Source: Patescibacteria group bacterium
GTDB taxonomy: Bacteria > Patescibacteriota > Minisyncoccia > Phycocordibacterales > UBA1550
Length of the DNA stretch: 64,000 nucleotides
Assembly (NCBI GenBank): GCA_038062675.1
Contig: JBBTWP010000001.1
Location: 186,059 to 250,058 of the forward strand
Direction: 5' to 3'
The position numbers and the translations under genes are program-made. Positions within the stretch are counted from its first letter, which is position 1. Each line of letters opens with the position of its first letter. The notes under the pieces were generated by a model. The model was not told the origin of the DNA. It ran no database searches and worked only from the letters and a program-made list of their open reading frames with translations. Below are positions 27,263 through 62,835 of this stretch, one piece after another.

Positions 27263-27429
27263 ATTGCACTAAGTATAGCCTGTGAAATTAACCTCGGCAA
27301 CCTTATTTCGGCCTCTCAAAGTAGGTTTTCTTTGTGGTTCGGGAGTCTTTGCAAATTACACCACACAACTTATTTCACGAGGTCTCACCTCGAGCCCGTC
27401 GAATCAACGAGAGGTGGTACCCACATTTT

Positions 27430-28293: not shown

Positions 28294-28315
28294 AGGATTT
28301 TATGCTTTTAGCACA

Positions 28316-29479: not shown

Positions 29480-29492
29480 ATTATTTTTTTGT

Positions 29493-30098
29493 TTAACTTA
29501 CTATGTCTGGCAAGTCTCGCAATTTCTTGCCTTTATATTTAAAATAATCCGCACCTGCATAAGCTCCACTCTCGTTCAGTTCGCCTCGTTGCTCATAGAG
29601 TTTATACGCGAGCGGAGATAATTTCCAAACCTGACCACCATATTCCACTTCTCGTTCACCGACAATTTTCGCTGTTATTTTTTCATCATCCTTAAAAACA
29701 ATCTCTTCCCCATTTTTCAAACCTTTTTTATAAAAGCTGAACAGTCTGCCTTGTCTTCTCACTTTCGATACTTCATCAAACTCTTTTTCCTGGTCAATGT
29801 TTTCAGGGTAAATAACTTTACCTTTAAATGAAAGTAGGAGCTCCCGAATCAATTCTTGGTCTAGGGCGAATAGTTCACTCTCACCAACTCGGTGTTTATT
29901 AAAAATATCGTGTAAGAGAGTTTCTTTCTCGACATAATCCTCAAGTTCAATTGCAAAAAATCTCTTTAACCCAGCAACATTGTAATAACCATTCGCTTCA
30001 AGGTTTCGCATCCTCTCCTGGTAATTATTTGTGCCTGTTTGTCCGATTTTTATCAAACCTGAAACAGCTGTTGTCGTTATATAAATAATTCCCTTCAT
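29493..30098 (-). CDS. GIY-YIG superfamily (T5orf172-like) nuclease
   Basis: [21 protein letters not shown] (GIY...YIG-like) followed by RMRNLE...N. Stop abuts the upstream methyltransferase gene. Start taken at internal MKGIIY. Confidence 0.6.
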
Positions 30099-30099
30099 A

Positions 30100-31272: not shown

Positions 31273-31280
31273 AATATTTT

Positions 31281-31310
31281 AATCGAACCTAGATATACAG
31301 CTTCAAAGGG
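31281..31310 (-). repeat. partial copy 1 of tRNA-Gln 3' portion
   Basis: aatcgaacctagatatacagcttcaaaggg, identical to tRNA positions. Its following 28 nt resemble the flank of copy 2. Confidence 0.7.
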
Positions 31311-31338
31311 CAACCTATTGTCGGTTTATGTTCTTGGC

Positions 31339-31380
31339 TGGGAGACTAGGAATCGAACCTAGATATACAGCTTCAAAGGG
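31339..31380 (-). repeat. partial copy 2 of tRNA-Gln 3' 42 nt (att-like direct repeat)
   Basis: tgggagactaggaatcgaacctagatatacagcttcaaaggg, identical to the 3' 42 nt of the adjacent tRNA. Its 5' continuation cannot form acceptor or anticodon stems. Confidence 0.75.
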
Positions 31381-31408
31381 CGGCCTATTGGTGGTTCATG
31401 AAGAGTGC

Positions 31409-31478
31409 TGGGAGACTAGGAATCGAACCTAGATATACAGCTTCAAAGGCTGCTGTCCTACCGTTAGACGATCTCCCA
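31409..31478 (-). tRNA. tRNA-Gln (anticodon UUG)
   Basis: Manual fold of the 70-nt gene: acceptor UGGGAGA/UCUCCCA with a U1-A72 pair, D-stem GUCU/GGAC, anticodon stem GCAGC/GCUGU, loop CUUUGAA, T-arm CUAGG-UUCGAUU-CCUAG. CCA not encoded. Confidence 0.75.
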
Positions 31479-31513
31479 GCACTATTCACGAACAACACCA
31501 ATTCCTACGGACC

Positions 31514-42702: not shown

Positions 42703-44211
42703 ATGGGAGAAAAACGCAGCAAAAGTCTTGTGCACCCAAGTGCACACGATATTATAGCCCTCATGAAAGCACCGACGGCAAAAGACCGAGCGGTCATAGA
42801 AAAAGCGTATGCATTTGCAGAAAAAGCGCATGAGGGGCAAACTCGTTACTCAGGCGAACCCTACTTCAACCACGTTGCTTTTGTAGCGCAAAATTTGGCA
42901 ACTATCAAAATGGACACTATCACAGTGGCGGCAGGACTCCTCCATGACACCATCGAGGATGCCAATGTGCCTGAAAAAACTATTGAGCAAGAATTTGGAA
43001 AAGAAGTATTATTCCTCGTTCTCGGTGTCACCAAACTTGGCAAACTAAAATATCGTGGCGTTGAGCGTCACGTCGAAAGTTTGCGGAAATTTTTCGTTGC
43101 TATGTCCGCGGACATTCGCGTCCTCCTAATCAAGCTCGCTGATCGGCTCCACAACATACAAACTCTCGAACATGTTCCGGAGGAAAAGAGGAAACGTATC
43201 GCGATTGAGACCCTTGAGGTTCACGCACGTCTTGCCGACCGCCTCGGCATGGGTAAGTGGAAAAGTCTCTTTGAGGACGCGGCGTTTAGGTACGCGTATC
43301 CAAAAGAATACATGGAAACTGCCGCCATCATCAAAACAAAACGAGTTACCGATGAAAAATATGCCGAAAAGATTTACCGGTCCATTCAAAAAGAACTCGT
43401 CGCAAATGGCATTAAAACAGCACGTGTTGAATATCGCGTCAAAAATCTCTACAGTCTTTGGAAAAAACTGGCACGAAAAGAAAAAGACCCAAGCAAAGTG
43501 TACGATATCCTCGCGCTCCGTGTTATTGTGGATTCTCTTGAAGATTGCTACCGAGCGCTCGGAATCATCCATAAACACTGGCGACCAGTTCCGGGACGCA
43601 TCAAAGATTACATTGCTGTTGGAAAGCCCAATGGCTATCGCTCGCTCCATACCACAATCTTCCGCGGGGATGGAGGGATTGTTGAGATTCAAATTCGTAC
43701 GCGTGAAATGCACGAAGAAGCGCAGTACGGAATCGCTTCACATTTAGGGTACAAAGAAGGGAGCTCAGGAAACAATACCTTGCAGAAAAATGTTGCTTGG
43801 GTTAAAGAACTTGTAGATTTACAAAAAAATGTTACTAAATCGGAAGAATTTCTCGAGCACCTCAAAATGGACTTCTTTAAAAATCGCGTATTTGTAATGA
43901 CTCCAAAAGGCGACATAATAGACCTGCCCGAAGACTCAACGGCAATCGATTTTGCCTATGCCATTCATTCAAACATCGGCGACCATGTCGCGGGGGTAAA
44001 AATCAATCATAAACTCGTCTCTCTTGATACAAAACTAAAAAATGGCAACATCGTAGAGATTGAGACAAAAGAATCGGCGACGCCGAAAAGAAAGTGGCTT
44101 GATTATACAAAAACCACACTTGCAAAGAGGCACATCCGCGCACGACTTGAAGAGGCAAATTCTTCCAACCCGATTGAGATGCTTGCAAGAAAATTCTTTA
44201 GGAAAAAATAA
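42703..44211 (+). CDS. rel: short bifunctional (p)ppGpp synthetase/hydrolase (HD + RelA/SpoT + TGS)
   Basis: HD motif HDTIED. Synthetase region RSLHTTI...EIQIRTREMH. TGS-like C-terminus. 502 aa, lacking the ACT/RIS domains. Confidence 0.85.
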   Translation: MGEKRSKSLVHPSAHDIIALMKAPTAKDRAVIEKAYAFAEKAHEGQTRYSGEPYFNHVAFVAQNLATIKMDTITVAAGLLHDTIEDANVPEKTIEQEFGKEVLFLVLGVTKLGKLKYRGVERHVESLRKFFVAMSADIRVLLIKLADRLHNIQTLEHVPEEKRKRIAIETLEVHARLADRLGMGKWKSLFEDAAFRYAYPKEYMETAAIIKTKRVTDEKYAEKIYRSIQKELVANGIKTARVEYRVKNLYSLWKKLARKEKDPSKVYDILALRVIVDSLEDCYRALGIIHKHWRPVPGRIKDYIAVGKPNGYRSLHTTIFRGDGGIVEIQIRTREMHEEAQYGIASHLGYKEGSSGNNTLQKNVAWVKELVDLQKNVTKSEEFLEHLKMDFFKNRVFVMTPKGDIIDLPEDSTAIDFAYAIHSNIGDHVAGVKINHKLVSLDTKLKNGNIVEIETKESATPKRKWLDYTKTTLAKRHIRARLEEANSSNPIEMLARKFFRKK

Positions 44212-47911: not shown

Positions 47912-48877
47912 CTAGTCAAACGATATTCCGAACGCATTGGCAATGCGTTCTAGTTCGCGTTCGGGATAATGCGCACTCCACACTTTCCGAATCACAGCGG
48001 TGTCCGCACACAGTCGATCATAAATCATCAGTGCTTCAGGTTGATAAAGATAAGCACTTCGGTTGGGCGTGCCCTCGGCCTCCTCGTAAACTTCGCGAAT
48101 CACGTCTTCGTGTTCAGCGTAAAAATGATCAAGATGGGACACGATCTGTCGCGACTCTTTTTCATACAGCGGCATAAGTAAATGGATCAACGCAAGTGAT
48201 ATTTCTGGATCACCGCGTCGCGTCGTGAGTTTGTAGTAATGCCGCTCTAGCGACTTCAGCAAATCAAGTTCTGGGGTTGTAGGCGTTTCCATATTTAGCC
48301 TAGTAAATTCACTATCGGCTACCTCGACTACTCCTGCAAGAAGGAAAATTCGACGCTTTATCGAATTCGGCAACGGATTAAGGGTATCGTCATTCTTGTA
48401 GTAGGTGTCATGTGACATCTCAGACCACAAATGTTGGGCAAGGGTTCGCACTTGAAGTTCAGCTTGAAACTTTTGCGGCGGATAAGTGGCCACCAGCGGG
48501 TCGTCCGCACACAGTTTCACATCGACATGTACACTCAGATATCCGACTTGATCCAGTTTCAGCGTATCAGCCTTCTGCTCTGGCTGCCCGCACTTAAACG
48601 ACTTTTCGGCTAACGCCAAAACCGCGTCGACTTCATTCTTGTACCGAAGAATCACACGAATGCCGGACTTATCGCTCACCGATTCATAATTATGACTCGG
48701 CTTCTTGATCAACTTGCGAATGAAACCATCCATTTCCTTCGCACGGCTGGTTACATCAGCCCAGATGCCCGCTTGACGCAATTCAGTACGTAGCCGCTTT
48801 TCAAGTTCTTTGCCGAATTGCTCATACTTGGGCCTCTCTTGAAGCCAGCGCTTCCGGGCGGTTTCCAAATCGGTCAT
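47912..48877 (-). CDS. RelA/SpoT-domain nucleotidyltransferase (toxSAS/CapRel-like) with C-terminal extension
   Basis: GIRVILRYKNEVD, VGYLSVHVDV and ELQVRTLAQHLWSEMSHDTYYK match the RelA_SpoT synthetase fold. No HD or TGS domains. Overlaps the upstream gene by 4 nt (ATGA). Confidence 0.7.
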   Translation of the reverse strand: MTDLETARKRWLQERPKYEQFGKELEKRLRTELRQAGIWADVTSRAKEMDGFIRKLIKKPSHNYESVSDKSGIRVILRYKNEVDAVLALAEKSFKCGQPEQKADTLKLDQVGYLSVHVDVKLCADDPLVATYPPQKFQAELQVRTLAQHLWSEMSHDTYYKNDDTLNPLPNSIKRRIFLLAGVVEVADSEFTRLNMETPTTPELDLLKSLERHYYKLTTRRGDPEISLALIHLLMPLYEKESRQIVSHLDHFYAEHEDVIREVYEEAEGTPNRSAYLYQPEALMIYDRLCADTAVIRKVWSAHYPERELERIANAFGISFD

Positions 48878-49905
48878 TTATGCACAATGTTTTGTAGTTG
48901 ATCATGCACAACTATTTGGTCAGTTTCGATGTCGACCAGATGTTCCTCGTCAACAGGCACAGTTACTGTCACGCCCTTAATCGTGTAGAGCGACTTTCGA
49001 CGAAGCTTGCTTTGAATATCTGAGGTATCTTTCTCGAACCCTTGCAGCGAAACTCGGTTATCGGCAAGGAAGTCCGAGTACAGCTTTTGGTAACTGTCCG
49101 GGATGTAATCCTCTATAAATTTCTTGGGTATAATTTTTGTCTTCTTGGATTTCAGCTCCGACAGGAGATGCTCGTACACATCATTTTTCTCCACCGGATC
49201 AGTAATGTAACTGTTAACGAAATTAACAGTCGCATCAAACCACTTCTGCGTTGCGATACGCGGTTCTTCTGTGGCACGGCATCCCAAAAACCGCATCCAG
49301 AATCGTGCTACATCCGTGCTTCTGGTTACTGAGCGCTGGCTGTCACACGCCGCAGCGCGGAACGTGTTCTCGCCAGTTCTAATAAACAGCGCGGATTTAA
49401 AAAGACGCGTGCCATCGGTAAACACAAGGTTGTCGAGCACGGACATCTCAAACCTCCGTCTACCATCAATTGTGCGCAGCTCAAGGTCGGCACCTTGCTC
49501 GCGCTCCAACTTTAAAATAGCTAGGCTGGCACGGCCGGCGCTGGCGATATCAATGACACATAACAATCCTGGAGACATCTGACCGCCCTGTTGGTCAAAC
49601 AAGTATTGCGCCAGCCGTTGTGACATATCAACGAAGTGCTTGATCGAATGAGACTTAGCTGTGAACTTCCCCACTTCATCGGGAACCGGCGAGCTGGTCT
49701 CAGGAAGAAATTCAGTCTCGTAGGCAGATTTAGACCCTAGCGCCCGCGTTAGTCGATCCTTCAACATACCAGCCCGCGACGAATCAATCTCCGTTTCGGC
49801 ATCGGCCAGGGTTGGTATGTTCGTACCGCCCTTAGAATTGTTTGGTACGTCATGGAAAATGATGTGTCTGATTTTTAGTCTGGCGAGATCGTCGGATGTA
49901 ATCAT
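48874..49905 (-). CDS. NA37 (YejK/NdpA-like) nucleoid-associated-protein family member
   Basis: N-terminal LKIRHIIFHDV and mid-protein FWMRFLGCRA resemble E. coli YejK (INQIALHQLIK, FFMDFLGASE). About 340 aa, as in YejK. Confidence 0.6.
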   Translation of the reverse strand: MITSDDLARLKIRHIIFHDVPNNSKGGTNIPTLADAETEIDSSRAGMLKDRLTRALGSKSAYETEFLPETSSPVPDEVGKFTAKSHSIKHFVDMSQRLAQYLFDQQGGQMSPGLLCVIDIASAGRASLAILKLEREQGADLELRTIDGRRRFEMSVLDNLVFTDGTRLFKSALFIRTGENTFRAAACDSQRSVTRSTDVARFWMRFLGCRATEEPRIATQKWFDATVNFVNSYITDPVEKNDVYEHLLSELKSKKTKIIPKKFIEDYIPDSYQKLYSDFLADNRVSLQGFEKDTSDIQSKLRRKSLYTIKGVTVTVPVDEEHLVDIETDQIVVHDQLQNIVHK

Positions 49906-50180: not shown

Positions 50181-50747
50181 TCACATCAATCCTCGCTCCG
50201 CCATACTCACCACCGCGCTCCCCGTCACCACAAAGTGATCGAGCACGCTCACTTCGACGAGAGCAAGTGCATCCTTGAGCCTCATCGTAAGTGCCGTGTC
50301 TGCGGCACTTGGTTCTGCAACCCCTGAAGGATGGTTATGGGCAAAGATGACACTGGCGGCGTTAAGCGCAAGTGCCCGCTTTACCACTTCGCGCGGATGG
50401 ACGGATGCACCCGCGAGGGTGCCGCGAAAGAGTTCCTCGGCAAGAATGAGATGATGTTGCGTAGTAAGGAAAAGAACAACAAAGACCTCATGTTCTCGTC
50501 CGTGGAGCAATACCTTGAGATACTCCTTAACGGTGTACGGTGAAGAAAAAACGTCTTCACCGTAAAGCTTTTCTTCAAGCGAGAGACGGACGAGTTCCCG
50601 GGCCACCGCAAGTTTCGGTACGTAGTTTTTGCTTCCTTCCTCTGCATAAAGAAGGGTGGTGAGTGAGCCTTGGTACAGCTTCTGTGCTTTCTTCGAACCT
50701 ACAAGAAGGGACAGAAGGTCAAGGTGTGATAGGTGGTGAAATGTCAT
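50181..50747 (-). CDS. radC: RadC-like JAB domain protein
   Basis: [18 protein letters not shown] motif. SD aaggag 7 nt upstream of the chosen ATG. Confidence 0.8.
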
Positions 50748-50810
50748 ATCGAGCTCCTTTATGTAAAGAACAAACCCGATATACATAATTATCTTTATAT
50801 AGCCCGAAAA

Positions 50811-50880
50811 CACGACGCGAGAATGTGCCGCGTGGACACGCTGCTAATCACTCAAACAGGCGGGTCATAATTCATGAAAA
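50811..50880. repeat. direct repeat R1 (about 70 nt)
   Basis: cacgacgcgagaatgtgccgcgtggacacgctgctaatcactcaaacaggcgggtcataattcatgaa. Related to R2 and R3. Confidence 0.7.
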
Positions 50881-51017: not shown

Positions 51018-52322
51018 GTGGGATATTTTCGGCAACTTACCGAAGCAGCAGATTGGCTAGTCACTCATCAAAATTTGGACGGAGGGTGGGGACTTAGCCC
51101 AAAGCAAGCTTCGTCAGTGGTAAATACGGCTGAATCAATATTTATTCTCGTAGAGGCAAACCACCTATGCGGTACTCATTACTCTGACCAGATTTTGAAG
51201 GGGTTTGAATTCATTTGGCGGCAACTACTAGAACAACTTGAAAAATATCCAAGAACTCGCTATGTCCAATTTGCGCTATGGAATTTCCCAAACCCAATAG
51301 TTGATTATCCAGGGGAGGTAAAGCGATACACTGAATGGCTTTTGGGCGCGCAAAATGATGATGGTGGCTGGGGGCACCACTCCAAGGACGGACAGTCCTC
51401 ACTCTTCCCGTCGGTACTTTCTTTGCTGGTATTGAATCGCCTCGGCACACTCACGAAAGAGAGTCGTGCAAAGGGCATTTCTTGGCTGCTTTCCAAAAGG
51501 GACGGGAAGGGGCTATGGGGATTTGTCTCTGGTCAACAAAGCAAAGTTGCAACCGCACAAGCTGTTCATGCTCTAGTAAATAACAAATATGAGATTGACG
51601 ATAGTGCAGTAAAAAATCTGATCGACTTTTTAAGTTCAGACTTGGATTGGGGTGTGGAAATTGAAAATGTGCCAGGGACAAAATGGGAGCATTCAAAAGT
51701 ACTGTGGATCGTGCCAAGCCTTCTTCTGCTTGGAACTGAGCCATATGAACATGTCATAGCCGACGCTGTTCGTAAAGTTAACACTCTACGGTATGAGAAT
51801 GGATGGAAAGAGCCCGATGGAGCAGAGACAATCCGCGGTCAGTTCTGGATTACAAGTATGTACGCCAAACTACATAAGGCTTTCGATCCAGCCATCGTGA
51901 CTTACAGAATTGAGTCAGCCTTATCAATCCAAAAACAAAAATACCTAGAGCCGGAGTATGTTCACCTCTTGCCCTCATCCAAATATTTTAGATTTGTGTT
52001 TCATTCACGCTGGTATCGCATAGCGACATATTTCTGTTTTTTCAGCAGCTTTTGTATACTGTTCCTTGTACCAACAATTGATTTGACCATTAAGAGATCG
52101 GCAATCGTTAGTGCATTATCAGTCCTAACCGTGAGCTTGTTTGCATCCTCGCTCATTCTTATAAAGAAACGAAAATCTTTTTTCCCTCCTTGGATAAGCA
52201 AAGGAATATTTCCGATTATTATAGGGATTATTATAGTCTTCGAGATTGTGAGTGCTGCGTTAGGAATAAGCGTACAGGATATTTATAAAATATTGTTAAC
52301 ACCCGCAATAACTTCCAAATAA
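51018..52322 (+). CDS. prenyltransferase/squalene-cyclase-repeat (alpha-toroid) protein with C-terminal TM helices
   Basis: Repeated (D/N)GGWG motifs: HQNLDGGWGLS, AQNDDGGWGHH, KRDGKGLWGF. Three or four C-terminal TM segments. Confidence 0.6.
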   Translation: MGYFRQLTEAADWLVTHQNLDGGWGLSPKQASSVVNTAESIFILVEANHLCGTHYSDQILKGFEFIWRQLLEQLEKYPRTRYVQFALWNFPNPIVDYPGEVKRYTEWLLGAQNDDGGWGHHSKDGQSSLFPSVLSLLVLNRLGTLTKESRAKGISWLLSKRDGKGLWGFVSGQQSKVATAQAVHALVNNKYEIDDSAVKNLIDFLSSDLDWGVEIENVPGTKWEHSKVLWIVPSLLLLGTEPYEHVIADAVRKVNTLRYENGWKEPDGAETIRGQFWITSMYAKLHKAFDPAIVTYRIESALSIQKQKYLEPEYVHLLPSSKYFRFVFHSRWYRIATYFCFFSSFCILFLVPTIDLTIKRSAIVSALSVLTVSLFASSLILIKKRKSFFPPWISKGIFPIIIGIIIVFEIVSAALGISVQDIYKILLTPAITSK

Positions 52323-52324
52323 TT

Positions 52325-52735
52325 ATGCAGTACATGTACAAAATAGGACTTGCACACATAAGAAACAACAGATTACTTTTGTGCCGTCCATTCGCATTTG
52401 ACCCCCTGATTCTTCCAGGCGGTTTGAAAAAAACAGGGGAATCACCGGTTGAAAATCTGATGCGGCAGATCGTCGAAGAGCTTGGCGGAGGGGCTCATTT
52501 GGAAACCAGTTCTCTCCGTTACTTGGGTAATTTCTCAGATTTTGCGGCTGGCAAAACAGAAAGGATTGTAGAGATTGAACTATATAGCGGGGAGTTGTCA
52601 GGAACTCTTGTAGCTTCTTCTGAGATACAGGAACTCAAGTGGTTCTCACCAACAGATGATTGGGAAACGCTTTCCCCCATAATTAAAAACAAGATACTTC
52701 CGTTCCTCATACAGAATGGTTCTTTATTGAAATAA
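52325..52735 (+). CDS. NUDIX hydrolase
   Basis: Nudix box PGGLKKTGESPVENLMRQIVEELGG. Separated from the upstream gene by 2 nt. Confidence 0.65.
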   Translation: MQYMYKIGLAHIRNNRLLLCRPFAFDPLILPGGLKKTGESPVENLMRQIVEELGGGAHLETSSLRYLGNFSDFAAGKTERIVEIELYSGELSGTLVASSEIQELKWFSPTDDWETLSPIIKNKILPFLIQNGSLLK

Positions 52736-52849: not shown

Positions 52850-53767
52850 CTATGCGCACTGATCCGCACTACTCTTTTCCAACGCAACCTCCTTCAGATA
52901 TCGACAAGCGACCTGAGCTGCACTTGATGCGGTAAAGATTGCCGTCTTCTCTTGGTGGAGCACCGTAAGCCAGCTTCTCACGTAGAACGCATGGTCACGC
53001 CGTGGATGCAGATAGATGCCAAGATCAGCACAAAGAAATGCCGCGCCGAGCTCTGCCACCAACTCTTCCATGGCATAGGCAAAGGTACCGAAGCGACCCG
53101 AAAGATCACGGTTCAAGCGCTTGGGGTGTCCCGACCAATGCACATGTTCATGGAGCAGCACCGAGTAGAAGGACTCAGTTGCCGAGCTTGTTTCCGTGCC
53201 CACGAATTGCCGACGCTCCGGCATACTGATACGGTCAAAAGCTCTGCTGTAAGCCGCGATGTCACCGCCATAGAGCACTTCCGCACCAAGCGACGAGATG
53301 AACGTATCTACGGTCTCCAATTGCTGTGTGCGGTCTTCTGGCAGTTCCTCTGCCTTCTGCCAGCCGTCTACTTGTTCCGCATTGAATACGGAGGAGCTGC
53401 GCATAATGGGAGGAAGCTTGGGGGTGTTGTCATTATGTGGCTCGTCTTCACCTTCTGCTTCCCTCTGTTTGAAGTAGATGATGGGTGAGGCTTTTTCTCC
53501 CCGCCTGACCTGAGCGCCGAGTTCGCTCCACTGACGGTAGGTGGCAAAGTAGGGTGATGTGTAACCGCGCAGTTGGCACGTAACCCATAATGCGAGGGTA
53601 TTAACCCCGTGGTAATGGTTGTGGGTGAGTGCATTCCGTGGCATGCCTCCGGCACGTTGGTGCCACGGCATAACATACTCTTCCCCGCTCGCTTCAATGG
53701 CCTTGATGATTTCATCGGTTATGCGGGCATGTACATCTCCCCGCTCAAAAGAACGTTCCGCTTTCAT
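52850..53767 (-). CDS. ardC: ArdC-like antirestriction protein (ssDNA-binding N-domain + zincin)
   Basis: N-terminal ITDEIIKAIEASGEEYVMPWH. C-terminal metalloprotease HEHVH motif. Confidence 0.7.
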   Translation of the reverse strand: MKAERSFERGDVHARITDEIIKAIEASGEEYVMPWHQRAGGMPRNALTHNHYHGVNTLALWVTCQLRGYTSPYFATYRQWSELGAQVRRGEKASPIIYFKQREAEGEDEPHNDNTPKLPPIMRSSSVFNAEQVDGWQKAEELPEDRTQQLETVDTFISSLGAEVLYGGDIAAYSRAFDRISMPERRQFVGTETSSATESFYSVLLHEHVHWSGHPKRLNRDLSGRFGTFAYAMEELVAELGAAFLCADLGIYLHPRRDHAFYVRSWLTVLHQEKTAIFTASSAAQVACRYLKEVALEKSSADQCA

Positions 53768-53873: not shown

Positions 53874-53940
53874 CACGACGTGGGAATGTGCCGCGTGGAC
53901 ACGCTACTATTTGTTCAATCAGGCAGGTCGTAATTCATGA
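53874..53940. repeat. direct repeat R3 (about 70 nt)
   Basis: cacgacgtgggaatgtgccgcgtggacacgctactatttgttcaatcaggcaggtcgtaattcatgaa. Shares extended similarity with R1. Confidence 0.7.
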
Positions 53941-54019
53941 AGTGCAATCTTTCCGCACGACGCGAAAAGTGTCTGTAAGGACATGGCTTCCGTGCCGTGT
54001 ATTCCCCTGTGTACTAGGT

Positions 54020-55216
54020 ATGCTTTCTTTCATGAAGAAGCATGTACCCATCTCGTATTTCGGAGTAACCAACGGACGGAAGAAGCTGCGGTTCGGTATC
54101 AAAGAGCGCGACCGGCTTTTTCACCTGTACGCCATTGGCAAGACCGGTACCGGAAAATCGACACTTCTGGAAACGCTGGCGCGTCAGGATATACGGCACG
54201 GGCACGGTCTGTGTGTCATTGACCCCCACGGTGATTTGGCAGAGCGGCTGGTAGCGTATGCGATGGGTGTGCGCCGAGGTGACCTCATCTACCTTGATGC
54301 TGCGGACATCACTCAGCCGTACGGATACAACCCACTACGGCGTGTGCGAAAAGACAAAGTACCACTTGCAGTGTCAGGCCTTCTTGAGGCATTCAAGAAG
54401 CTGTTTGACGATGCGTGGGGAGTGCGTATGGAGCACATATTTCGGAACACGCTCTATGCCTTGATCGAGTATGGCAACGCGACGCTCCCCGATGTGCTCC
54501 GCATGGTATCTGATGCCAAATTCCAGAGGGACGTGCTCAAACACGTGGAGAATGTACAGGTGCGGAAATTCTGGGAAGAGGAATTTCCGCACTACAATCC
54601 GCGCTACCGGCAGGAGATGATCTCCCCCATTCAGAACAAAATCGGTGCCTTCTTGGCCGACCCCCGACTCCATCGAATATTCACGGAACCACCGGTTGAC
54701 CTCCACTTCCGCCACATCATGGATACGGGAAAAATCCTCATCGTTAATCTCGCCAAAGGGCGGTTGGGGGACGACAGTGCGAATTTGTTGGGAGCCTTAC
54801 TCGTTACCACGCTCAGTCTTGCTGGGTGGTCCCGGAGTGAGATTCCCGAACGAGAACGTCGCAACTTTTTTGTGTATCTCGATGAGTTTCAAACCTTCAC
54901 CACGCTTTCCGTGACGAATGCGGTTTCTGAACTGCGGAAGTACGCTCTGGGGTTCGTGCTTGCCAACCAACACCTCCACCAGCTCACCGAGGACGTGCGG
55001 CATGCGGTGCTCGGGAATGTCGGTACCATCATCACCTTCCGTGTGGGGCCGGAGGATGCACGCATTCTTGCGCGTGAATTTAGTCCGGTGTTTTCCCCTG
55101 AAGACTTGTCGAGCCTTCCCAACCACGACATCTACGTGAAGCTCATGATCGACGGTGCGCCGGGGAGGCCGTTCAGTGCGACAACGCTCCATCCCCAAAA
55201 CCAAGAAGCATCTTGA
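54020..55216 (+). CDS. TraD/TrwB/HerA-like P-loop ATPase (FtsK-HerA superfamily)
   Basis: Walker A AIGKTGTGKST, IDPHGDL and FVYLDEFQTF (Walker B). The ORF-track start at 53888 is a GTG inside repeat R3, so the start is taken at ATG 54020. Confidence 0.6.
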   Translation: MLSFMKKHVPISYFGVTNGRKKLRFGIKERDRLFHLYAIGKTGTGKSTLLETLARQDIRHGHGLCVIDPHGDLAERLVAYAMGVRRGDLIYLDAADITQPYGYNPLRRVRKDKVPLAVSGLLEAFKKLFDDAWGVRMEHIFRNTLYALIEYGNATLPDVLRMVSDAKFQRDVLKHVENVQVRKFWEEEFPHYNPRYRQEMISPIQNKIGAFLADPRLHRIFTEPPVDLHFRHIMDTGKILIVNLAKGRLGDDSANLLGALLVTTLSLAGWSRSEIPERERRNFFVYLDEFQTFTTLSVTNAVSELRKYALGFVLANQHLHQLTEDVRHAVLGNVGTIITFRVGPEDARILAREFSPVFSPEDLSSLPNHDIYVKLMIDGAPGRPFSATTLHPQNQEAS

Positions 55217-55277
55217 GGGATATGGCATGAGGGAGTCTAATGCAAAGCTTCGCAAACGATCATGAGGGGAGAACATC

Positions 55278-55784
55278 ATGGGAAAGGTCGTACCGGAAAC
55301 CATCCTTTCGCATTGGAACACTATGGTCCAGGGGATGAAGCATTCGTCGAAGAGCTTCTATGATTCTGTTGAGCAAATCTTGGGTGCCCACCATCTTGAA
55401 CATATCAAGATTGAGCGTGTGAATCTTTTCGAGGGCAGTATTCTGTCCGCGAAACGCGAGTATCTGCAAATAAGGCGAGAAGCGTTGGTGTTTCATATCT
55501 GTGCCGCACCGTTCGGCAACGGCTTCTTTGTTTCGTGGTGGCTGGGAGAACGGGAAAAAGGATTCTTTGCACTCTTGGCGCGTATTCCCGTTATTGGTTT
55601 TTTCCTCCGCTCTGTACTGAAGCCTCTTACCTACTACAAATTTGATACCACAGGCATGTTTCAGTCGGTAACCCACGCGGCGGTGCTCGAAACGCTGGAT
55701 GCCGTGGTGAATGCGCAGGGCATACGGGCACTGTCCGACCTTGACCGGAAGCCGATCATGCGTGATTTCTTCGGGCGTACGTAG
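55278..55784 (+). CDS. hypothetical protein
   Basis: 168-aa ORF between the two ATPase genes. Confidence 0.4.
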   Translation: MGKVVPETILSHWNTMVQGMKHSSKSFYDSVEQILGAHHLEHIKIERVNLFEGSILSAKREYLQIRREALVFHICAAPFGNGFFVSWWLGEREKGFFALLARIPVIGFFLRSVLKPLTYYKFDTTGMFQSVTHAAVLETLDAVVNAQGIRALSDLDRKPIMRDFFGRT

Positions 55785-55801
55785 CGCTTCGTGAGTCTCT
55801 C

Positions 55802-58800
55802 GTGACACGCCCCCTTGCAGAGCGCATTACCGAAAGCTTCTACGCATGGGAATTGCGGGGACGTGGGTGGTCCCTTTCCGATTACCCGGTATCCCTTGAG
55901 CCGCCCTACCGACCAATCTTTTTGCTTCCTTCGCAAGGTAATGACGGCGTGTGTGACGACGGGAAACGGCCAACATTTCTTTCCTCGCTCGCGTTGGTGA
56001 CAAAGAATATTTGGAAGAGCGGCAATCATCCCTTTCCAGCTCTTCCCGCTCCACCCTTCGAGGAAATGCTGCCATTCCCCGCTCCCCCGTCCAGTGAGCG
56101 TGCAACACTTACGATACGGGTACCGGCGGATTTCGCGGCACAGGTCGAGGTTGCACAAAAGCTTCTGCTTACACTCTCGACCGCGCTTCAACCTCTTTGC
56201 TTTGAAATTGTAGGTCGGTACAAATCTGTGGTGTTTCAAATTACCTGCGCCGCATCTGACACGACCCACGTCATTGAAACCATCCGTGGATATGTCCCCG
56301 ATGCGGTCGTTACCGAAGAATCCGATATTTTGGTGGACGCGTGGGATATCAGAGAAGAGGGCGCCGTTATTGACTTCGGCCTGTCCCACGAATTCTTTCT
56401 GCCGCTTCAAGCCGTCAATTCCTTCACCATTGATCCATACATTCCCCTCGTTGGAGCGCTCGGGCAGATGGGTGCAGACGAGTTGGGCTGCGTTCAAATA
56501 CTCTTCGCGCGGGTCAGGAACCCATGGGCAGAAAGTGCCAGAGATGCGGTGAATGACGGCAAAGGCGGGTGCATTTTTGCCGACGCGCCAGAATTTGTGA
56601 AGCTCACGCGCGAGAAAACGGAAACGCCGCTCTTTGCGGTAGTGATTCGTATTGCAGCACAAGGAATGGCACCAGAACGGGCATGGAGTATTGCGCGTTC
56701 TCTCGGAAGCTTCTTTCTTCAATTCGCACGCTCGGGCAGCAATGAACTCATACCGCTCGACAATGACGCATACCCCGACGAACTGCATACGCAAGCGCTC
56801 CTTGCACGCGAGAGCTACCGCACGGGAATGATTCTTTCCCTTCCAGAACTCTCCGGGTTGGTGCACTTCCCTGACGCATCCGTTCTCCATGAAGCGCTTC
56901 ACCGTGAACGTAAATCCACCAAAGCACTTCCCGAGGTAGCGCTCGGTCATCATTTGATTCTGGGAGAAAATATACACCGGGGTATTTGCACGCCGGCGAC
57001 ACTGGGGACTAGTGACCGGCTCCAACATGTACATGTGATTGGTGCTTCGGGTACCGGGAAATCTACGCTTCTCCTCAACCTCATCGAGCAGGATATTGCA
57101 AAGGGTGAAGGTGTCGCTGTCTTTGACCCCCATGGAGACTTGATCGAAGAAATTCTTGCGCGTGTTCCCGAGGAACGTACTCACGACGTGGTGGTATTTG
57201 ATCCCGGTGATGAAGCGTGGCCCATGGGATTCAATGTACTGTCTGCAACCAGTGAAATTGAAAAGAACCTCATTGCATCCGACATGGTGGGCATCTTCAA
57301 ACGCTTAGCGACAAGCTGGGGCGACACTATGAGCGCAGTGTTGGGGAATGCGGTGCTTGCCATGCTCGAAGGTAAGCAGGGCGGAACGCTTCTCGATCTG
57401 CGGCGTTTTCTCCTTGATGACATGTTTCGGAAGCGGTTTCTCGCCGAGATTGCTGATGAGGAAATCCGTTTCTTCTGGCACAAGGAATACCCGCTCATCG
57501 GTTCCCGCTCCATTGGGCCGATCCTCACCAGATTGAACGCATTCCTTCGCGCCAAGCTCATCCGTAACATTGTGGGGCAGAAGGGTGGCACGCTCGATAT
57601 TTCAAAAATCATGAACGTGCGCAAGGTGCTCTTGGTTAAACTTTCTCATGGCATCATCGGTGAAGAGAACGCGCACCTTCTGGGAAGCTTACTCGTGAGC
57701 AAATTCCACCAGTCGGCGCTCCTCCGACAACAGGTAGCTAAAGACTCGCGCAGTCCGTATTTTCTTTACCTTGATGAATTTCAGCACTTCGTCACGCCTT
57801 CAATGTCATCCCTCCTTACCGACTCACGGAAATATGCATTGGGGCTTACCTTGGCGCATCAGACGCTTGCACAGCTTGATGATTCTCCTGTGAAGAGTGC
57901 GGTCCTTGGCAATGCGCATACGCGCATCGTGTTTCGGGTTGATTACGCTGATGTGGCGACCCTTGCACGCGGGTTTGCTTCCTTTGATGCAGAGGATGTG
58001 CAGAACCTGTCGCGGGGGGAGGCGGTGGTCCGAATGGGGCGTGCGGAGAACGACTTTAATCTGCACACGTTCCCCGCGACGCATATTGAACAAGATGTGG
58101 CACGAGCACGGAGCGCATCCGTTATTGCACATTCACGAGAGATGTTTGCGACACCGCGTGCCGTACTCGAAGAAGGGTTCCGTACAGCACAGGAGCCGCA
58201 GGAAGCGGCGGTGGTTGGTGCGGTAACAGTTGCAGAAGAAAAACGAGAGGCGACGCAAAAGGAAAAAGCACTTGCCACCCGTAAACGCGAAATCACTCCT
58301 CCTGTTCTACCACCATCTCCACCAACTCTCCGGGCACACCCCATTCCCCCACCGGAACCGTCACCCCTTGGCCGGGGCGGGCAGGAACATAAGTACCTTC
58401 AACATCTGGTGAAGCGATTAGGTGAGGAGCGGGGGTTTCGCGCAATCATTGAAGAACAGGTGCCGAATGGCCAGGTTGACGTGGTGCTCCGCAAAGAATC
58501 GTTGGTGATTGCTTGTGAAATTTCAATCACCACGAACGTCGATCACGAAGTCGAGAATATCCAAAAATGTCTGGCTTCAGGGTTTACTAAAATTCTCTTC
58601 ATTACGCCCGATGCAAAGCGGCGCGAAAAAGTCGGAAAAAAGCTGAAGGAGGTTCCGAATGGAACACTTGTTGACCTATTGGGACCGGAAGACATTTTGC
58701 CTACTTTGGATCGGCTTGATACCATGACGCCGACCCAAACAACAGTGCGGGGTTACAAGGTGAAAGTGACACGGCAAACGCTCTCCCCCGCAGATGTTGC

Positions 58801-58864
58801 AGAGCGGCGGTCGGTGGTGGCGCAGGTTATTGCGCGGTCGCTTTCAAGAGTGAAGAAGGGGTGA
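55802..58864 (+). CDS. large multidomain protein: unknown N-domain, TraD/HerA-like ATPase, Pro-rich linker, C-terminal nuclease-like domain
   Basis: Second Walker A VIGASGTGKST, FDPHGDL, FLYLDEFQHF. C-terminal VDVVLRKE...HEVENIQKC resembles a restriction-endonuclease-like fold. Confidence 0.6.
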   Translation: MTRPLAERITESFYAWELRGRGWSLSDYPVSLEPPYRPIFLLPSQGNDGVCDDGKRPTFLSSLALVTKNIWKSGNHPFPALPAPPFEEMLPFPAPPSSERATLTIRVPADFAAQVEVAQKLLLTLSTALQPLCFEIVGRYKSVVFQITCAASDTTHVIETIRGYVPDAVVTEESDILVDAWDIREEGAVIDFGLSHEFFLPLQAVNSFTIDPYIPLVGALGQMGADELGCVQILFARVRNPWAESARDAVNDGKGGCIFADAPEFVKLTREKTETPLFAVVIRIAAQGMAPERAWSIARSLGSFFLQFARSGSNELIPLDNDAYPDELHTQALLARESYRTGMILSLPELSGLVHFPDASVLHEALHRERKSTKALPEVALGHHLILGENIHRGICTPATLGTSDRLQHVHVIGASGTGKSTLLLNLIEQDIAKGEGVAVFDPHGDLIEEILARVPEERTHDVVVFDPGDEAWPMGFNVLSATSEIEKNLIASDMVGIFKRLATSWGDTMSAVLGNAVLAMLEGKQGGTLLDLRRFLLDDMFRKRFLAEIADEEIRFFWHKEYPLIGSRSIGPILTRLNAFLRAKLIRNIVGQKGGTLDISKIMNVRKVLLVKLSHGIIGEENAHLLGSLLVSKFHQSALLRQQVAKDSRSPYFLYLDEFQHFVTPSMSSLLTDSRKYALGLTLAHQTLAQLDDSPVKSAVLGNAHTRIVFRVDYADVATLARGFASFDAEDVQNLSRGEAVVRMGRAENDFNLHTFPATHIEQDVARARSASVIAHSREMFATPRAVLEEGFRTAQEPQEAAVVGAVTVAEEKREATQKEKALATRKREITPPVLPPSPPTLRAHPIPPPEPSPLGRGGQEHKYLQHLVKRLGEERGFRAIIEEQVPNGQVDVVLRKESLVIACEISITTNVDHEVENIQKCLASGFTKILFITPDAKRREKVGKKLKEVPNGTLVDLLGPEDILPTLDRLDTMTPTQTTVRGYKVKVTRQTLSPADVAERRSVVAQVIARSLSRVKKG

Positions 58865-58966: not shown

Positions 58967-59228
58967 GGTAGTTAGAAGTTCTCCTCTCAGGTACGAACCC
59001 AGAAATTATCCCACACTGACGCGCCGATGTTTGCGCGCAAATACATCGAGCAATTCCACAACCCGCGATGTCGGCGAAGACTTGAAGTCGGTCAACAGCA
59101 GAAATTACTCTTAACTCAACCGTCCGTGAAAAAGCGGTAGAACCCCTCCCCGTACGTCGCCCGTTAGTTTGTAGGCTGAGGTGCATATTTGCTTGTGCAT
59201 CTCCACTGCAAATCAACTGGAGAAATTT

Positions 59229-59462
59229 ATGGCGGAAAATTCTAGACTTTTTTACTGGATAGACAAAAATATGTTGCCAATTGGTACCGTGGCTATTGTA
59301 TTGATCACGTCAGTGCTAATCGCCATGTTTTTTGGAGAGAGACCGCATGACGTAGTCTATAAAGGACAATTTTGGGTATATTTCGGCATGGATGTGATTT
59401 GCATCGCGTTACTGGTAGCGGAGGTTATCAGTAGCTACTACTATAAGAAACCACGAAAATAA
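59229..59462 (+). CDS. small membrane protein
   Basis: Start at MAENS with a ggag SD 8 nt upstream. Two TM helices. Confidence 0.45.
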   Translation: MAENSRLFYWIDKNMLPIGTVAIVLITSVLIAMFFGERPHDVVYKGQFWVYFGMDVICIALLVAEVISSYYYKKPRK

Positions 59463-59514: not shown

Positions 59515-60759
59515 ATGAAGATGACTGTTGGGGCAGAAGAACCAAGCGCAACGATATCTCGTTTGCCGTCAGGTGGTATAGCCACAACGTGGCTATTTGT
59601 TGTCAGTAGCACATTACTTTCAGCGTACGTGTGTATTCCCACAATTAACGCACTTTTCAATCGATTACTTAAACTTGCCTTACTCAATCAAGTAGAGATT
59701 TCAGGGTCTCCCTTTGTGCTTGTCTATATCATTGTTTTAATATCAGCATATTGTGGAATAGCTTCGCGCGATGGCGACAACAAGGATGCCATCGTTAAAT
59801 CAAGATGGGTCGTTGCCAGTCTAGTAGTAGCATTTGCTGCCGCTTATGCGCTCACAGCTTACCAATCAGTTTTGGTATTTTCGATAGGCATGTTGTTTCT
59901 TCCTACTGTTGGAGTTTCTTGTATTCCGAAACATGCACGTAGTCCATGGACACAATTTATTGCTGTTGGAACAGTATTTTCTACCTTCATAACGCTTGGT
60001 TATTCCATTTTTAGATTTTCTGAATCTGTACTCTCACCTAAATTTCTGGACTTTATTTTTGTAATCCGCCTAACCTTTTTTATTGTGGCAAGTTTCTGGC
60101 TTTTTGTACGTATCACTACAAAAACAATACATGAGTATCGAGAATCTGGGCTGCGCCGAGAATCAGACAACTTAGAGTCATCTAGTCCTATTTTTCGCAT
60201 TTTTAATGGTTTGGTGGATCTAGCTATCCACTTTGCGCACTCGATCCCTGGCTGGTGGGAAATATTCTGGCGCGTACTCAAGTCTGAAGTTGGCGATTTT
60301 TTTAACGCAAAAATATGGGGACGATTGTGGAAATTTTTGATTTCATTGGTCGTGATTTTGTTTGTTGCTTCACTACTTCCCTTTGCTCTAGATAGCCTAG
60401 TTCAGCACCTTCAGACTGATTACTTCGTTGGCGAATTCTCTTTGTTTCCCCTATTCACCCTAACTGTCTATGTCCTTGCGGGGGTGTTTGTCGCTGTTGG
60501 GTGTCGCTGGCTATTAGATGTTAAATTTGAAATTCGGAAAGACTTTGCACACCGAATTGGTGATCCCATATTAGCACTTGCGCTTGTCGCGTTTGCAATC
60601 GGTTGTGTTGGTAAGTTGGCTCATTTTCTCGGTTTGGAGATGATGGGGTTCGCAGGTTGGCCCGTTGCAACACTCATTCTTTTAAGCATCTTCATAATAA
60701 TGGTCGTTAAGCGCTTTATATCTACCTCAGGACGCTATCGTAAAATCTCATCTCAATAG
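59515..60759 (+). CDS. polytopic membrane protein, unknown function
   Basis: About 10 predicted hydrophobic helices. Confidence 0.5.
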   Translation: MKMTVGAEEPSATISRLPSGGIATTWLFVVSSTLLSAYVCIPTINALFNRLLKLALLNQVEISGSPFVLVYIIVLISAYCGIASRDGDNKDAIVKSRWVVASLVVAFAAAYALTAYQSVLVFSIGMLFLPTVGVSCIPKHARSPWTQFIAVGTVFSTFITLGYSIFRFSESVLSPKFLDFIFVIRLTFFIVASFWLFVRITTKTIHEYRESGLRRESDNLESSSPIFRIFNGLVDLAIHFAHSIPGWWEIFWRVLKSEVGDFFNAKIWGRLWKFLISLVVILFVASLLPFALDSLVQHLQTDYFVGEFSLFPLFTLTVYVLAGVFVAVGCRWLLDVKFEIRKDFAHRIGDPILALALVAFAIGCVGKLAHFLGLEMMGFAGWPVATLILLSIFIIMVVKRFISTSGRYRKISSQ

Positions 60760-60783: not shown

Positions 60784-62763
60784 CTAGAAAATATCTACTC
60801 CCAAAAACCCATTCATCAATTCCCGCCACCGCCCCCTCGGTACCGTCTCACCACTCTCCCAAACCCGCCACGTCCCCTCGTCGACACCAAGGTGCCGTGC
60901 TGCTTCCTTGAGGGACCAGCCCATCGCGCGCCGTTTGGCGAGCAGGCGTTCAGGAAGGCTCTCCGGCTTCGGAAAGGGGTCGTAGCCTAAGAAGCGGAAG
61001 ATGGCGGGCATGGACGCAATCGGTGGTTCAGTTTTCGTCTTCTCCCAATTTAGTACCGTGGCAGAACTGACCCCGAGGAGCTTCCCGGCTTCTCGTTGGT
61101 TGAGCTTCATTTCCTTACGTCGCTTGTGAATATGCTCGCCCAAAGTTTGGGGCATAATTTCGGTTTCCTTTGGTTTCAATGCTTTAAGGCACACGCGGAC
61201 GTATGGCAAGAAGGCAACGCGTCTATGAGGTTTCGTTGCCATTCCGCCACCGTCTAAGAGGGTAGGGGGAGTGTCCGGCGTTTCAGGGGTGAAGGGGGTC
61301 TCGGTGGAAGTCACAGAAGCAGGTGGTGCATAGAAGAGGTGGATTTCTACTTCGCCGACGTGAACAATGATCCGCTCAGTAATGGCCTCCACGATTTGGC
61401 GCTTTTCTTCGTTAGGAAGCGTTGGCCAACGGGTATAGAGATCACGGGCGCTGGTGACGATTTCCTCCTGCGAGAGGTGGGAGATTTTGAGGACATCCAG
61501 TTCCGCTTGTACCTGAGGAAGTTCCTCTTCGAGTTGCCGTTGCCGCAAGGCCATTGGGTGGTATTTTGCTCCGAAGCCTGCCTTGTCAATTGCGCTTGAT
61601 TGGTAGAGGTCATAGAGCTTGTCTACTTCGGCAGCAAGCTTCTTTTGTTCCTTGTGGAGCACCGTGAGGAGTTCTTCTTTTTCATGAATGGCGGCGTGTG
61701 CCTTGCTCAAGTGCGCGGCGATTTCATGGGGTGAAAAGAAGAAGTTTTTGATCTGTTCGTGGAATACCCCCTCCAAGTCAACAACCGGGATTTTGTTGCG
61801 GCAGGCGTAACAGACGTATTTCGGAGTGTTGGACGGCACATACATTTTTTGGCCACAGCCGCAGTGGGTAAGCCCAGCAAAGAGGTGGACGGTTTGCCTC
61901 GCTAGGCGCTTCCCTTTCGCCCTTTGACCGTCCAAGATGGCATTGCATTCGTTCCAGAGTTCTTCGGGGACGATGGCTTCTACTTCAAGGAGCACCCATT
62001 CACTTTCAGGCTTCCGTTCCCATGTCTTTTTGTTGTTCTTTGTTTGGGTGTAGTTTGCGCGACGGATGCCCTTGGCGGTTGGGTCGCGCAAAAGGCGGTC
62101 TACCGTCGTGTCGGAAAACAGTGAGCCGTTCCGGGTGCGGTAGCCACGTTCATTGAGGAGCCGTGCCACGGTTTTCTTGCGGCGGTATTCCCGAAAGAGT
62201 TCGTACATGAGCTTTCGTACCGGTGCTTCCTTGAGGTCAGGAATAAGCTTTCGATCTTTCCACTGATAGCCGAAAGGTGCTTGGCCACCGAGCGGCTTCC
62301 CCATCTTGGCGCGGATAGGGACCGATGCGGCAACCCGCTGCGCGATTTCCTCACGTTCCCACTGCGCCATGGCGGCAATCATCGTATAGAAGAGGCGGCC
62401 TGCTGGGGTTGAGGTGTCGATGGATTCCCCGAGCGATATGAGGTCAGCATTGTACGTGCGGAACTCTTCCGCGAATTCGAGGAGTTCTCGGGTGTTACGG
62501 GCAAGGCGAGCGAGCTTCGAAAAGATGATGCCGGTGATGTGGCCCTTCTTGATGTCACCCAGCATGCGCTTGGCTTCGGCGGTTTCTTTGACAGTCTTTC
62601 CCGAAATGGCGTCAAGACGGTACACCTCGATCACGTCCCAGCCTTTCGCTTCGGCGTAGTGGCGAGCGCGGCGTTCGTGGTGCTCGGGTGATTCCCCTCT
62701 TACTTGATCTTCGGTCGAGACACGAATCCAAATGCCGACCCGTTTGGAGCTTTCAGCGTGCAT
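60784..62763 (-). CDS. large serine recombinase fused to C-terminal tandem XRE-type HTH domains
   Basis: Resolvase N-domain VGIWIRVSTEDQ with catalytic Ser. Recombinase and zinc-ribbon regions. C-terminal LNQREAGKLLGVSSATVLNWEK and SLKEAARHLGVDEGTWRVWE HTH motifs. SD gggagga upstream of ATG 62763. Confidence 0.8.
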   Translation of the reverse strand: MHAESSKRVGIWIRVSTEDQVRGESPEHHERRARHYAEAKGWDVIEVYRLDAISGKTVKETAEAKRMLGDIKKGHITGIIFSKLARLARNTRELLEFAEEFRTYNADLISLGESIDTSTPAGRLFYTMIAAMAQWEREEIAQRVAASVPIRAKMGKPLGGQAPFGYQWKDRKLIPDLKEAPVRKLMYELFREYRRKKTVARLLNERGYRTRNGSLFSDTTVDRLLRDPTAKGIRRANYTQTKNNKKTWERKPESEWVLLEVEAIVPEELWNECNAILDGQRAKGKRLARQTVHLFAGLTHCGCGQKMYVPSNTPKYVCYACRNKIPVVDLEGVFHEQIKNFFFSPHEIAAHLSKAHAAIHEKEELLTVLHKEQKKLAAEVDKLYDLYQSSAIDKAGFGAKYHPMALRQRQLEEELPQVQAELDVLKISHLSQEEIVTSARDLYTRWPTLPNEEKRQIVEAITERIIVHVGEVEIHLFYAPPASVTSTETPFTPETPDTPPTLLDGGGMATKPHRRVAFLPYVRVCLKALKPKETEIMPQTLGEHIHKRRKEMKLNQREAGKLLGVSSATVLNWEKTKTEPPIASMPAIFRFLGYDPFPKPESLPERLLAKRRAMGWSLKEAARHLGVDEGTWRVWESGETVPRGRWRELMNGFLGVDIF

Positions 62764-62835
62764 ACGTCCTCCCTTTGGTAGGGTGAGCAGGCGCACATTT
62801 TACGACAGAGGGTGAGAATTGTGGTGATGGTTTAG

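Follow-up and report, generated by a model that had tools for sequence, protein, structure and literature searches.

Type IV coupling proteins such as TrwB of R388, TraD and VirD4 share a P-loop ATPase core of the FtsK/HerA clade into which an all-alpha domain is inserted. The same core and insert characterise two paralogous proteins, named A and C here, which are encoded together with a small protein, B, on a contig of a Patescibacteria group bacterium (GenBank assembly GCA_038062675.1, contig JBBTWP010000001.1, positions 186,059 to 250,058). These 64,000 nucleotides were analysed as a whole and are referred to as the window. The A-B-C set forms the conserved core common to a family of elements that integrate into the chromosome, are moved by a large serine recombinase and in many bacteria have the gene comM as their target. 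In contrast to the coupling proteins, A and C have no N-terminal membrane anchor and are not linked to a relaxase or a mating pore; C adds a 280-residue N-terminal domain and a nuclease tail, and the two paralogues are part of one operon.

Relaxases of the MobC class have a restriction-endonuclease fold. Integrative mobilisable elements (IMEs) and plasmids encoding a VirD4-type coupling protein of their own combine it with a MobC relaxase, as in CloDF13 and some Streptococcus IMEs (PMC5704250). The locus described here resembles these elements in having a coupling-type ATPase and a cutter of restriction-endonuclease fold on a small non-conjugative element, and in a serine-recombinase integration that disrupts a dispensable gene. 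The differences are that the nuclease is fused to the ATPase and that the hosts span many phyla.

A pair of VirB4 and VirD4 ATPases without a relaxase is present in archaeal integrative and conjugative elements and in Sulfolobus plasmids (PMC6563490). These are likewise two signature ATPases of the FtsK/HerA clade with no detectable relaxase, but in the archaeal elements they are accompanied by VirB6, VirB3, pilins and further membrane components, none of which is conserved in the bacterial elements studied here (B itself has no VirB3 match in Pfam). Relatives of the ATPase domain occur on Sulfolobus and haloarchaeal plasmids.

Ring ATPases of the same superfamily also work with nucleases in the HerA-NurA resection machine, in HerA defence systems and, as mad8, in MADS. 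The present proteins differ from them in the TrwB-type all-alpha insert, in the PD-(D/E)xK domain fused through a linker, and in a context that is the backbone of a mobile element and not a repair or defence locus. Finally, large Bacillus phages (SPO1-like phages, phage G gp156, phage JL and 0305phi8-36) encode proteins with the ATPase and, in part, the N-domain of C in the same arrangement. The N-domain and ATPase of C match phrog_5156 (6e-65) and, by Foldseek, phage proteins at 9e-44 (phage G gp156) and 1e-39, the phage JL protein giving TM values of 0.54/0.60. In phage G a second paralogue, gp155, adjoins gp156. The phage proteins differ in lacking the nuclease tail and any detected B homologue, and they are encoded by virulent phages. 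The parts of the A-B-C set belong to known superfamilies. Their combination appears to be undescribed: as the backbone of a cross-phylum integrative element, an ATPase of the coupling type with a fused PD-(D/E)xK domain occurs together with a minimal ATPase paralogous to it and an adaptor that can be swapped. A limited text search, which is weak evidence, found no literature on the domain family DUF8128 of C or on a comM-targeting serine-recombinase island with these ATPases.

Conservation of the set in related loci

Related loci were sampled through A and C only and amount to about 95. Sampling through C gave 87 loci, 7 from genome look-ups and 80 from an alignment-based metagenome scan, which was far more productive than a contig scan with the single protein (4 loci); all open reading frames (ORFs) were clustered. 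A further 6 loci were sampled through A. Across these loci, which come from many phyla, B-C or its counterpart B2-C2 is invariant. It is usually accompanied by A, by a divergent RadC gene and by a serine recombinase with a helix-turn-helix (HTH) partner, and sometimes by ArdC.

In the C-sampled set the B cluster was identified directly upstream of C in 77 of the 87 loci. A serine recombinase 50-80% identical to the one in the window is present in 52, and in 17 of these it lies immediately downstream of C in the same direction. A was found in 17 of the 36 loci with at least 9 kb of upstream sequence, RadC in 14 loci (directly upstream of A and divergent in L003 and L005-L008) and ArdC in 8-9. 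No other gene is shared, and the remainder is unshared cargo: a C5-methylase with Vsr in L005; DUF4365 with an N6-methylase in L003; an AHH toxin with Imm11, and Endonuclease_1, in L092; a ubiquitin-like Bub/E1/E2 set in L091; and NotI restriction-modification with SMC-like ATPases in L095. No replication gene (initiator, primase), partition gene, capsid gene or type IV secretion system (T4SS) gene is conserved across the related loci, which leaves A-B-C as the only candidate for a propagation function.

The loci sampled through A revealed a second subtype. In all six, A is followed by a small gene and by a protein of 897-921 aa, C2, and in five of them a divergent RadC gene is located upstream. 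The ATPase cores of the two subtypes are 26-28% identical and the nuclease tails 49%, and hhalign detected no relation between B2 and B or between the N-domains of C2 and C. Judged from these comparisons, the small protein and the N-domain are swapped together between subtypes. Strong constraint is seen in the nuclease tail and in A, which is what recognition of a conserved DNA site, or of one another, would lead one to expect.

Full-length homologues of C, more than 1300 in number and about 1000-1060 aa long, were identified in Proteobacteria, Bdellovibrionota, Binatota, Myxococcota, Nitrospinota and Patescibacteria. Homologues of B number more than 500, and those of A are 68-82% identical across phyla. 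An identical C is found on nine Hainich groundwater contigs with the same surrounding genes in all nine. None of 72,556 plasmids and no member of the phage collection encodes a full-length C homologue, and the plasmid collection has no close homologue of the recombinase.

For A, a single close plasmid relative was found, with 46% identity, on a Sulfitobacter mediterraneus plasmid (L089, NZ_CP081110, 97127-101181). Its neighbours are the gene of a serine 'recombinase family protein' and one for DUF3768, and transposases follow. The locus has the appearance of an element of this kind that has decayed to a remnant.

Integration into comM

The N-terminal ~350 codons of comM/yifB come after the recombinase gene in about 20 loci (junctions in L010, L012, L015, L016, L033, L061-L065, L074 and L077), and in about 10 others the HTH gene is followed by the C-terminal ~170 codons (L003, L006, L027, L036, L052, L058, L091 and L092). 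The two genes occupy opposite ends of the element. The break is always at the codons for AAMNP|CPCG, and a single arm, present in inverted copies, makes up both ends of the element at this point, ..|TGAGGTTGCGTTGCCTTTCTGCCAT.. and ..ATGGCAAAAAGGCAACGCGGCC|... Such insertions were seen in Proteobacteria and other groups. The inverted arms flanking the split comM in these relatives are the signature of serine-integrase attP x attB recombination inside comM. Integrative elements were already known to target this gene (PMC7192596), and the elements inserted in it often bear defence systems (PMC11472951).

The recombinase of the window is fused to a double HTH module in a single ORF, with Pfam matches to Resolvase, Recombinase, Zn_ribbon_recom, HTH_3 and HTH_31 (Table 1). 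Homology to the recombinases at comM-N junctions stops at residue 491-494 of this protein, and homology to the HTH proteins at comM-C junctions begins at residue 524-527. Both arms are joined between these points in an intact attP-like site, ATGGCAACGAAACCTCATAGACGCGTTGCCTTCTTGCCAT on the minus strand, which was the only match of the arm sequence in the window (0.09 expected by chance). Since the two homologies end and start around the joined arms, integration into comM splits what is a single reading frame in the window; excision could rejoin the recombinase-HTH frame and so act as a built-in switch. The attP-like site is equally unsplit in L005, L009, L040 and L097. The window copy is chromosomal despite its unsplit site and no comM fragment is present with it; integration through attP is seen in its relatives.

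At comM-C junctions the end of the element reads ATGGCAAAAAGGCAACGCG.. and is in frame with the downstream CPCG... codons (L003, L006, L091 and L092; e.g. L092, ~17255-17300). Gene callers place a Mg_chelatase_C ORF of 166-193 aa starting at this junction, and the element may supply the start codon for the C-terminal ComM fragment.

Gene calls and the two ATPases

The three genes are co-directional, with spacers of 61 nt (A-B) and 17 nt (B-C), and a promoter and terminator scan, otherwise uninformative, found no terminator-like site between them. The ORF of A ends at 55216 and can be opened at 53888, 54020 or 54032. The start is most likely the ATG at 54032, or 54020; of these 54032 is probable because NCBI models the identical protein with 394 aa and because 53954-54000, which falls inside the longer ORF from GTG 53888, is conserved non-coding DNA. 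A first-pass annotation of the window, made from its sequence alone, had described the three genes as an operon, and these three ORFs were recovered. It had also put the base composition of the block at 58-60% GC, which was too high: the measured value is 0.536 against a background of 0.454 (first 50 kb), with 0.549 in A, 0.511 in B and 0.538 in C.

A and C carry the motifs read by that annotation, Walker A (GKTGTGKST in A, GASGTGKST in C), IDPHGDL or FDPHGDL, and Walker B (VYLDEFQ or LYLDEFQ), and their paralogy holds as well, the identity being 37% over 347 aa (E 1.8e-61) with residues 405-745 of C as the part related to A. Both match Pfam TrwB_AAD_bind (4.1e-11 for A and 1.6e-11 for C), DUF87 and TraG-D_C, and a search of PDB sequences with A matches TrwB. 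The NCBIfam models of conjugation proteins score far below their cut-offs: SXT_TraD 35.1 and 37.3 bits (cut-off 366), F-type TraD 21-26 bits (521) and VirB4_CagE 23 bits (643). No transmembrane segment was identified in A or C, where the Kyte-Doolittle maxima over 19 residues are 1.23 and 1.24 and no segment reaches 1.4.

B has no match in the Pfam, NCBIfam or PHROG scans, and its hydropathy profile has a single borderline, moderately hydrophobic stretch at residues 95-115. Matches of B to GPCRs in profile searches of PDB and Pfam reflect hydrophobic composition only and were rejected; nothing meaningful was found there.

Domain organisation of protein C

The structure of C was modelled with AlphaFold from an alignment of 63 sequences (mean pLDDT 85.7). 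The model agrees with the architecture outlined by the first-pass annotation, namely an additional N-terminal domain, the ATPase, a Pro-rich linker and a folded C-terminal domain resembling restriction endonucleases. The protein starts with a short conserved helix and the motif WExRGRGW...LEPP, followed by a disordered stretch. The N-domain comes next, at ~280 aa shorter than the 350 aa given earlier, and corresponds to DUF8128. Its profile finds 1646 representative clusters at 50% identity, so that by this domain alone the family comprises at least 1646 clusters; the best 150 matches in the representative library all have the same architecture, with no new domain context. Profile searches of PDB sequences and Pfam with the N-domain gave nothing meaningful. 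An HUH relaxase was considered for this domain and rejected, there being no conserved His pair or HUH pattern among its invariant residues.

In the ATPase, Walker A corresponds to residues 414-422 (57041-57067) and the Walker B DE pair to 658-659. G414, G417, G419, K420, S421, D658 and E659 are invariant across 63 homologues. The model places the all-alpha helical insert at residues 485-605 and two long helices between the ATPase and the linker. In Foldseek the best superposition was obtained for the ATPase part with TrwB (TMt 0.61-0.64, rmsd ~5.3 A, ~415 columns). The full-length protein had its best E-value with VirB4/TrwK (1.8e-16, ~800 aligned columns), where the TM is only 0.25-0.31, and the fold also matches HerA.

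The tail, modelled separately with a pLDDT of 85.5, shows the alpha-beta-beta-beta-alpha-beta fold of restriction endonucleases and has PD-(D/E)xK nucleases as its best PDB matches in Foldseek: AF1548/Mrr-like (1.7e-5), then the R2 RLE endonuclease, R.BspD6I, Can2, Bax1 and Hjc. Among 30 tail domains of the family, 18 have a weak match to Mrr_cat and 9 to PDDEXK_9, and none matches relaxase or replication-relaxation families in the Pfam and NCBIfam scans. H863, Y865, E884, D893, E906 and E916 are invariant, K922 nearly so, and D893 aligns with the strand of AF1548 that bears the catalytic aspartate (IDVV). The canonical E-x-K reads E-x-S in this tail (E906, S908), so that nuclease activity is not assured. 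The invariant E916 and the nearly invariant K922 are on the helix that follows E906, and the catalytic lysine may have migrated there, to K922. From this residue pattern the tail is likely, although not certainly, catalytically competent.

The palindrome upstream of gene A

The intergenic region between RadC and A contains a nested palindrome (CACGAC..GTGyC-N5/6-GrCAC..CCGTG) that is common to elements of Patescibacteria, Proteobacteria, Bdellovibrionota and other groups and to both C subtypes. In alignments of 11-12 elements from several phyla, 80% of cells are paired compared with 19-52% in slid controls (12 elements), five outer pairs are changed on both sides, and the observed covariation score was reached by none of 500 shuffles. 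This covariation is suggestive only, since the sample is small and the structure was derived from the same sequences. As a candidate cis site, the palindrome could be the operator of the HTH protein or an origin of processing. A second GTGCC-N5-GGACAC-like copy is located at 53888-53902.

Proposed role and alternatives

We tentatively propose, at slightly less than an even chance, that A-B-C is a module for DNA processing and translocation that mobilises the DNA of the element itself. In this scheme C would form an ATPase ring of the TraD/TrwB kind, and the PD-(D/E)xK domains, held on the flexible Pro-rich linker, would introduce a nick or a cut into the excised element at a cis site, for which the palindrome is the candidate; C would then translocate (pump) the DNA. 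A may be another ring motor from the same clade, of minimal build, working on the same substrate, and B an adaptor that binds the N-domain of C. RadC and ArdC would serve the DNA arriving in a new cell, like the leading-region genes of plasmids. In favour of the proposal are the backbone status of the set, the coupling-protein clade of both ATPases, the nuclease fold of the tail with its conserved acidic residues, the compensatory changes in the palindrome and, as precedents, the mobilisable elements with a MobC relaxase and the archaeal VirB4/VirD4 pairs. The term DNA-processing module, one of two offered by the first-pass annotation, is a fair description.

Several findings weigh against this proposal. 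All three proteins look cytoplasmic, A and C being without a membrane anchor and B having one borderline stretch. No mating-pore gene is conserved in the ~95 loci or present in the scanned ORFs of the window, and the hosts comprise monoderm and diderm bacteria and Patescibacteria, a breadth of envelopes that does not sit easily with docking onto a single type of helper T4SS. The N-domain and ATPase occur in virulent, non-conjugating Bacillus phages, some with adjacent paralogues. To these are added the E-x-S of the nuclease tail and the palindrome, which could be a mere operator for the HTH protein.

The cytoplasmic appearance of the three proteins, their distribution regardless of host envelope and the phage homologues, some of them tandem paralogues, are also what would be found if the work of A-B-C were purely intracellular, with the excised circle or incoming DNA as its substrate (in maintenance, segregation, resolution, replication initiation or establishment) and with no intercellular transfer; the two-ATPase sets of the large virulent Bacillus phages would then function alike. 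Motors of the FtsK/HerA clade do pump DNA in segregation and end-processing. We nevertheless regard this explanation as unlikely, though a serious alternative: no conserved replication initiator, primase or partition gene is found alongside the triad, the RadC and ArdC neighbours point to DNA entering a new cell, and the nuclease tail, the part of C best conserved between subtypes, is missing from the phage homologues. No greater probability is given to the other idea of the first-pass annotation, that A-B-C is an anti-phage or anti-plasmid defence of a HerA-type ATPase and a nuclease, and the commonest payload of a recombinase island. The elements are indeed rich in defence and toxin cargo, the nuclease of C resembles Can2, Cap4 and Mrr, and PADLOC matches both ATPases to mad8 of MADS (3e-17, 61 bits) and weakly to HerA. 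MADS, however, is an operon of eight genes, mad1-mad8 (bioRxiv 10.1101/2023.03.30.534895), and membership was rejected, since the match is at the level of the mad8 ATPase alone with no other component. PADLOC found no complete system, and B, ArdC and the neighbours match none of its models. The triad, moreover, is an invariant backbone around which every recognisable defence system varies as cargo, and RadC and ArdC, typical of transferred DNA, together with the conserved palindrome fit the processing of self DNA better.

That A and C are ordinary TraD/VirD4 coupling proteins whose remaining conjugation genes are elsewhere in the genome is suggested by their database name ('type IV secretion system DNA-binding domain-containing protein') and by the TraD-type matches in Pfam and NCBIfam. 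This is very improbable in view of scores ten-fold under the NCBIfam cut-offs, the lack of a transmembrane domain, the absence of a full-length homologue in the plasmids searched, and the absence of a relaxase or T4SS from the scanned ORFs of the window and from the conserved genes of the ~95 loci. The first-pass annotation had noted the lack of a relaxase, VirB4 or pilus gene, which held for the scanned ORFs of the window, and had doubted that these were the coupling proteins of a nearby T4SS.

A wider form of the mobilisation proposal, quite unlikely as it stands, is that RadC-A-B-C with the serine recombinase is a self-sufficient, envelope-independent and T4SS-free machine, for launch or for exploiting uptake, that moves DNA between cells or into new genomes. 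If so, a coupling-type ring ATPase with a tethered nuclease would process the excised circle, large virulent phages would have co-opted related motors, and the presence of 70-80% identical A proteins in Patescibacteria, Proteobacteria, Acidobacteria and Actinobacteria would be explained.

Should the mobilisation proposal be correct, the loci would represent a large cross-phylum family of small integrative islands with a recognisable and apparently undescribed backbone, which carry restriction-modification systems, toxins and further defence genes as cargo and inactivate comM, a gene of transformation. The fused coupling ATPase and nuclease is a testable candidate for relaxase-free DNA mobilisation, and the relatives of C in phage G, phage JL and SPO1-like phages are experimentally tractable. 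A, B/C and the attP arms form a marker set for the detection of such islands in metagenomes, Patescibacteria included.

Neighbouring genes and other features of the window

The features of the locus are listed in Table 1. The first-pass annotation had the genes of the module right and missed their mobile-element context, which is formed by RadC and ArdC upstream and by the recombinase-HTH gene downstream. Two groups of low-GC cargo interrupt the backbone: the prenyltransferase/terpene-cyclase-like and NUDIX genes (GC 0.43) are wedged between RadC and ArdC, and two membrane-protein genes (GC 0.418) separate C from the recombinase. Neither group has homologues in any related locus. The other scanned ORFs of the window belong to housekeeping and other functions.

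Table 1. Features of the A-B-C locus, with positions in the window
Feature	Position	Strand	Description
RadC-like JAB-domain gene	50181..50813	-	Backbone gene; Pfam RadC E 1.9e-41; GC 0.504
Prenyltransferase/terpene-cyclase-like protein	51018..52322	+	Alpha-alpha toroid (squalene-cyclase-like) fused to 3 C-terminal membrane segments (Pfam, hydropathy)
NUDIX hydrolase	52325..52735	+	Pfam
ArdC-type gene	52850..53767	-	ArdcN 4.4e-33 (ssDNA-binding), MPTase-PolyVal zincin 1.5e-43; GC 0.544
Nested palindrome	53954..54000		Conserved, non-coding, RadC/A intergenic region
Gene A	54032..55216	+	394-aa soluble TraD/TrwB-type P-loop ATPase, ATPase domain alone
Gene B	55278..55784	+	168 aa, no assigned fold, invariant upstream partner of C
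Gene C	55802..58864	+	1020-aa multidomain protein
C N-domain, residues 92-372	56075..56917	+	Alpha/beta, DUF8128 (PF26449; precomputed Pfam), pLDDT >90
C ATPase, residues 385-760	56954..58081	+	TraD/TrwB-type with inserted all-alpha domain (Pfam)
C Pro-rich linker, residues 805-856	58214..58369	+	Disordered, pLDDT 41-52, variable in the family alignment
C tail, residues 857-1020	58370..58861	+	PD-(D/E)xK fold (857-975), then conserved beta-hairpin and helix
Small ORF	59181..59462	+	Two transmembrane segments (hydropathy)
Membrane protein	59515..60759	+	~10 segments (hydropathy)
Large serine recombinase-double HTH fusion	60784..62796	-	670 aa; recombinase residues 1-494, HTH module 524-667
Intact attP-like site	61201..61242	-	Inside the recombinase-HTH ORF, both arms joined

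Just upstream of RadC, at 47912-49905 on the minus strand, a RelA_SpoT-only gene (small alarmone synthetase-like) overlaps by 4 nt with a divergent gene for an NA37 nucleoid-associated protein. The synthetase-like protein matches phage families (phrog_9640, 5.9e-31), and the pair may be further cargo or a toxin-like module. On the right flank, an exact-sequence look-up of a YHYH protein gave no match.

A stretch of low GC (0.37-0.41) at ~27000-31500 adjoins a tRNA-Gln gene (31407-31478, minus strand) and encodes an EcoRI-type adenine methyltransferase (30100-31272) and a protein with GmrSD_N and HNH domains (28316-29479); it is probably a separate restriction or defence islet. The Rel/SpoT homologue at 42703-44211 comprises only 502 aa, with HD, RelA_SpoT and TGS domains and without the usual C-terminal regulatory region.

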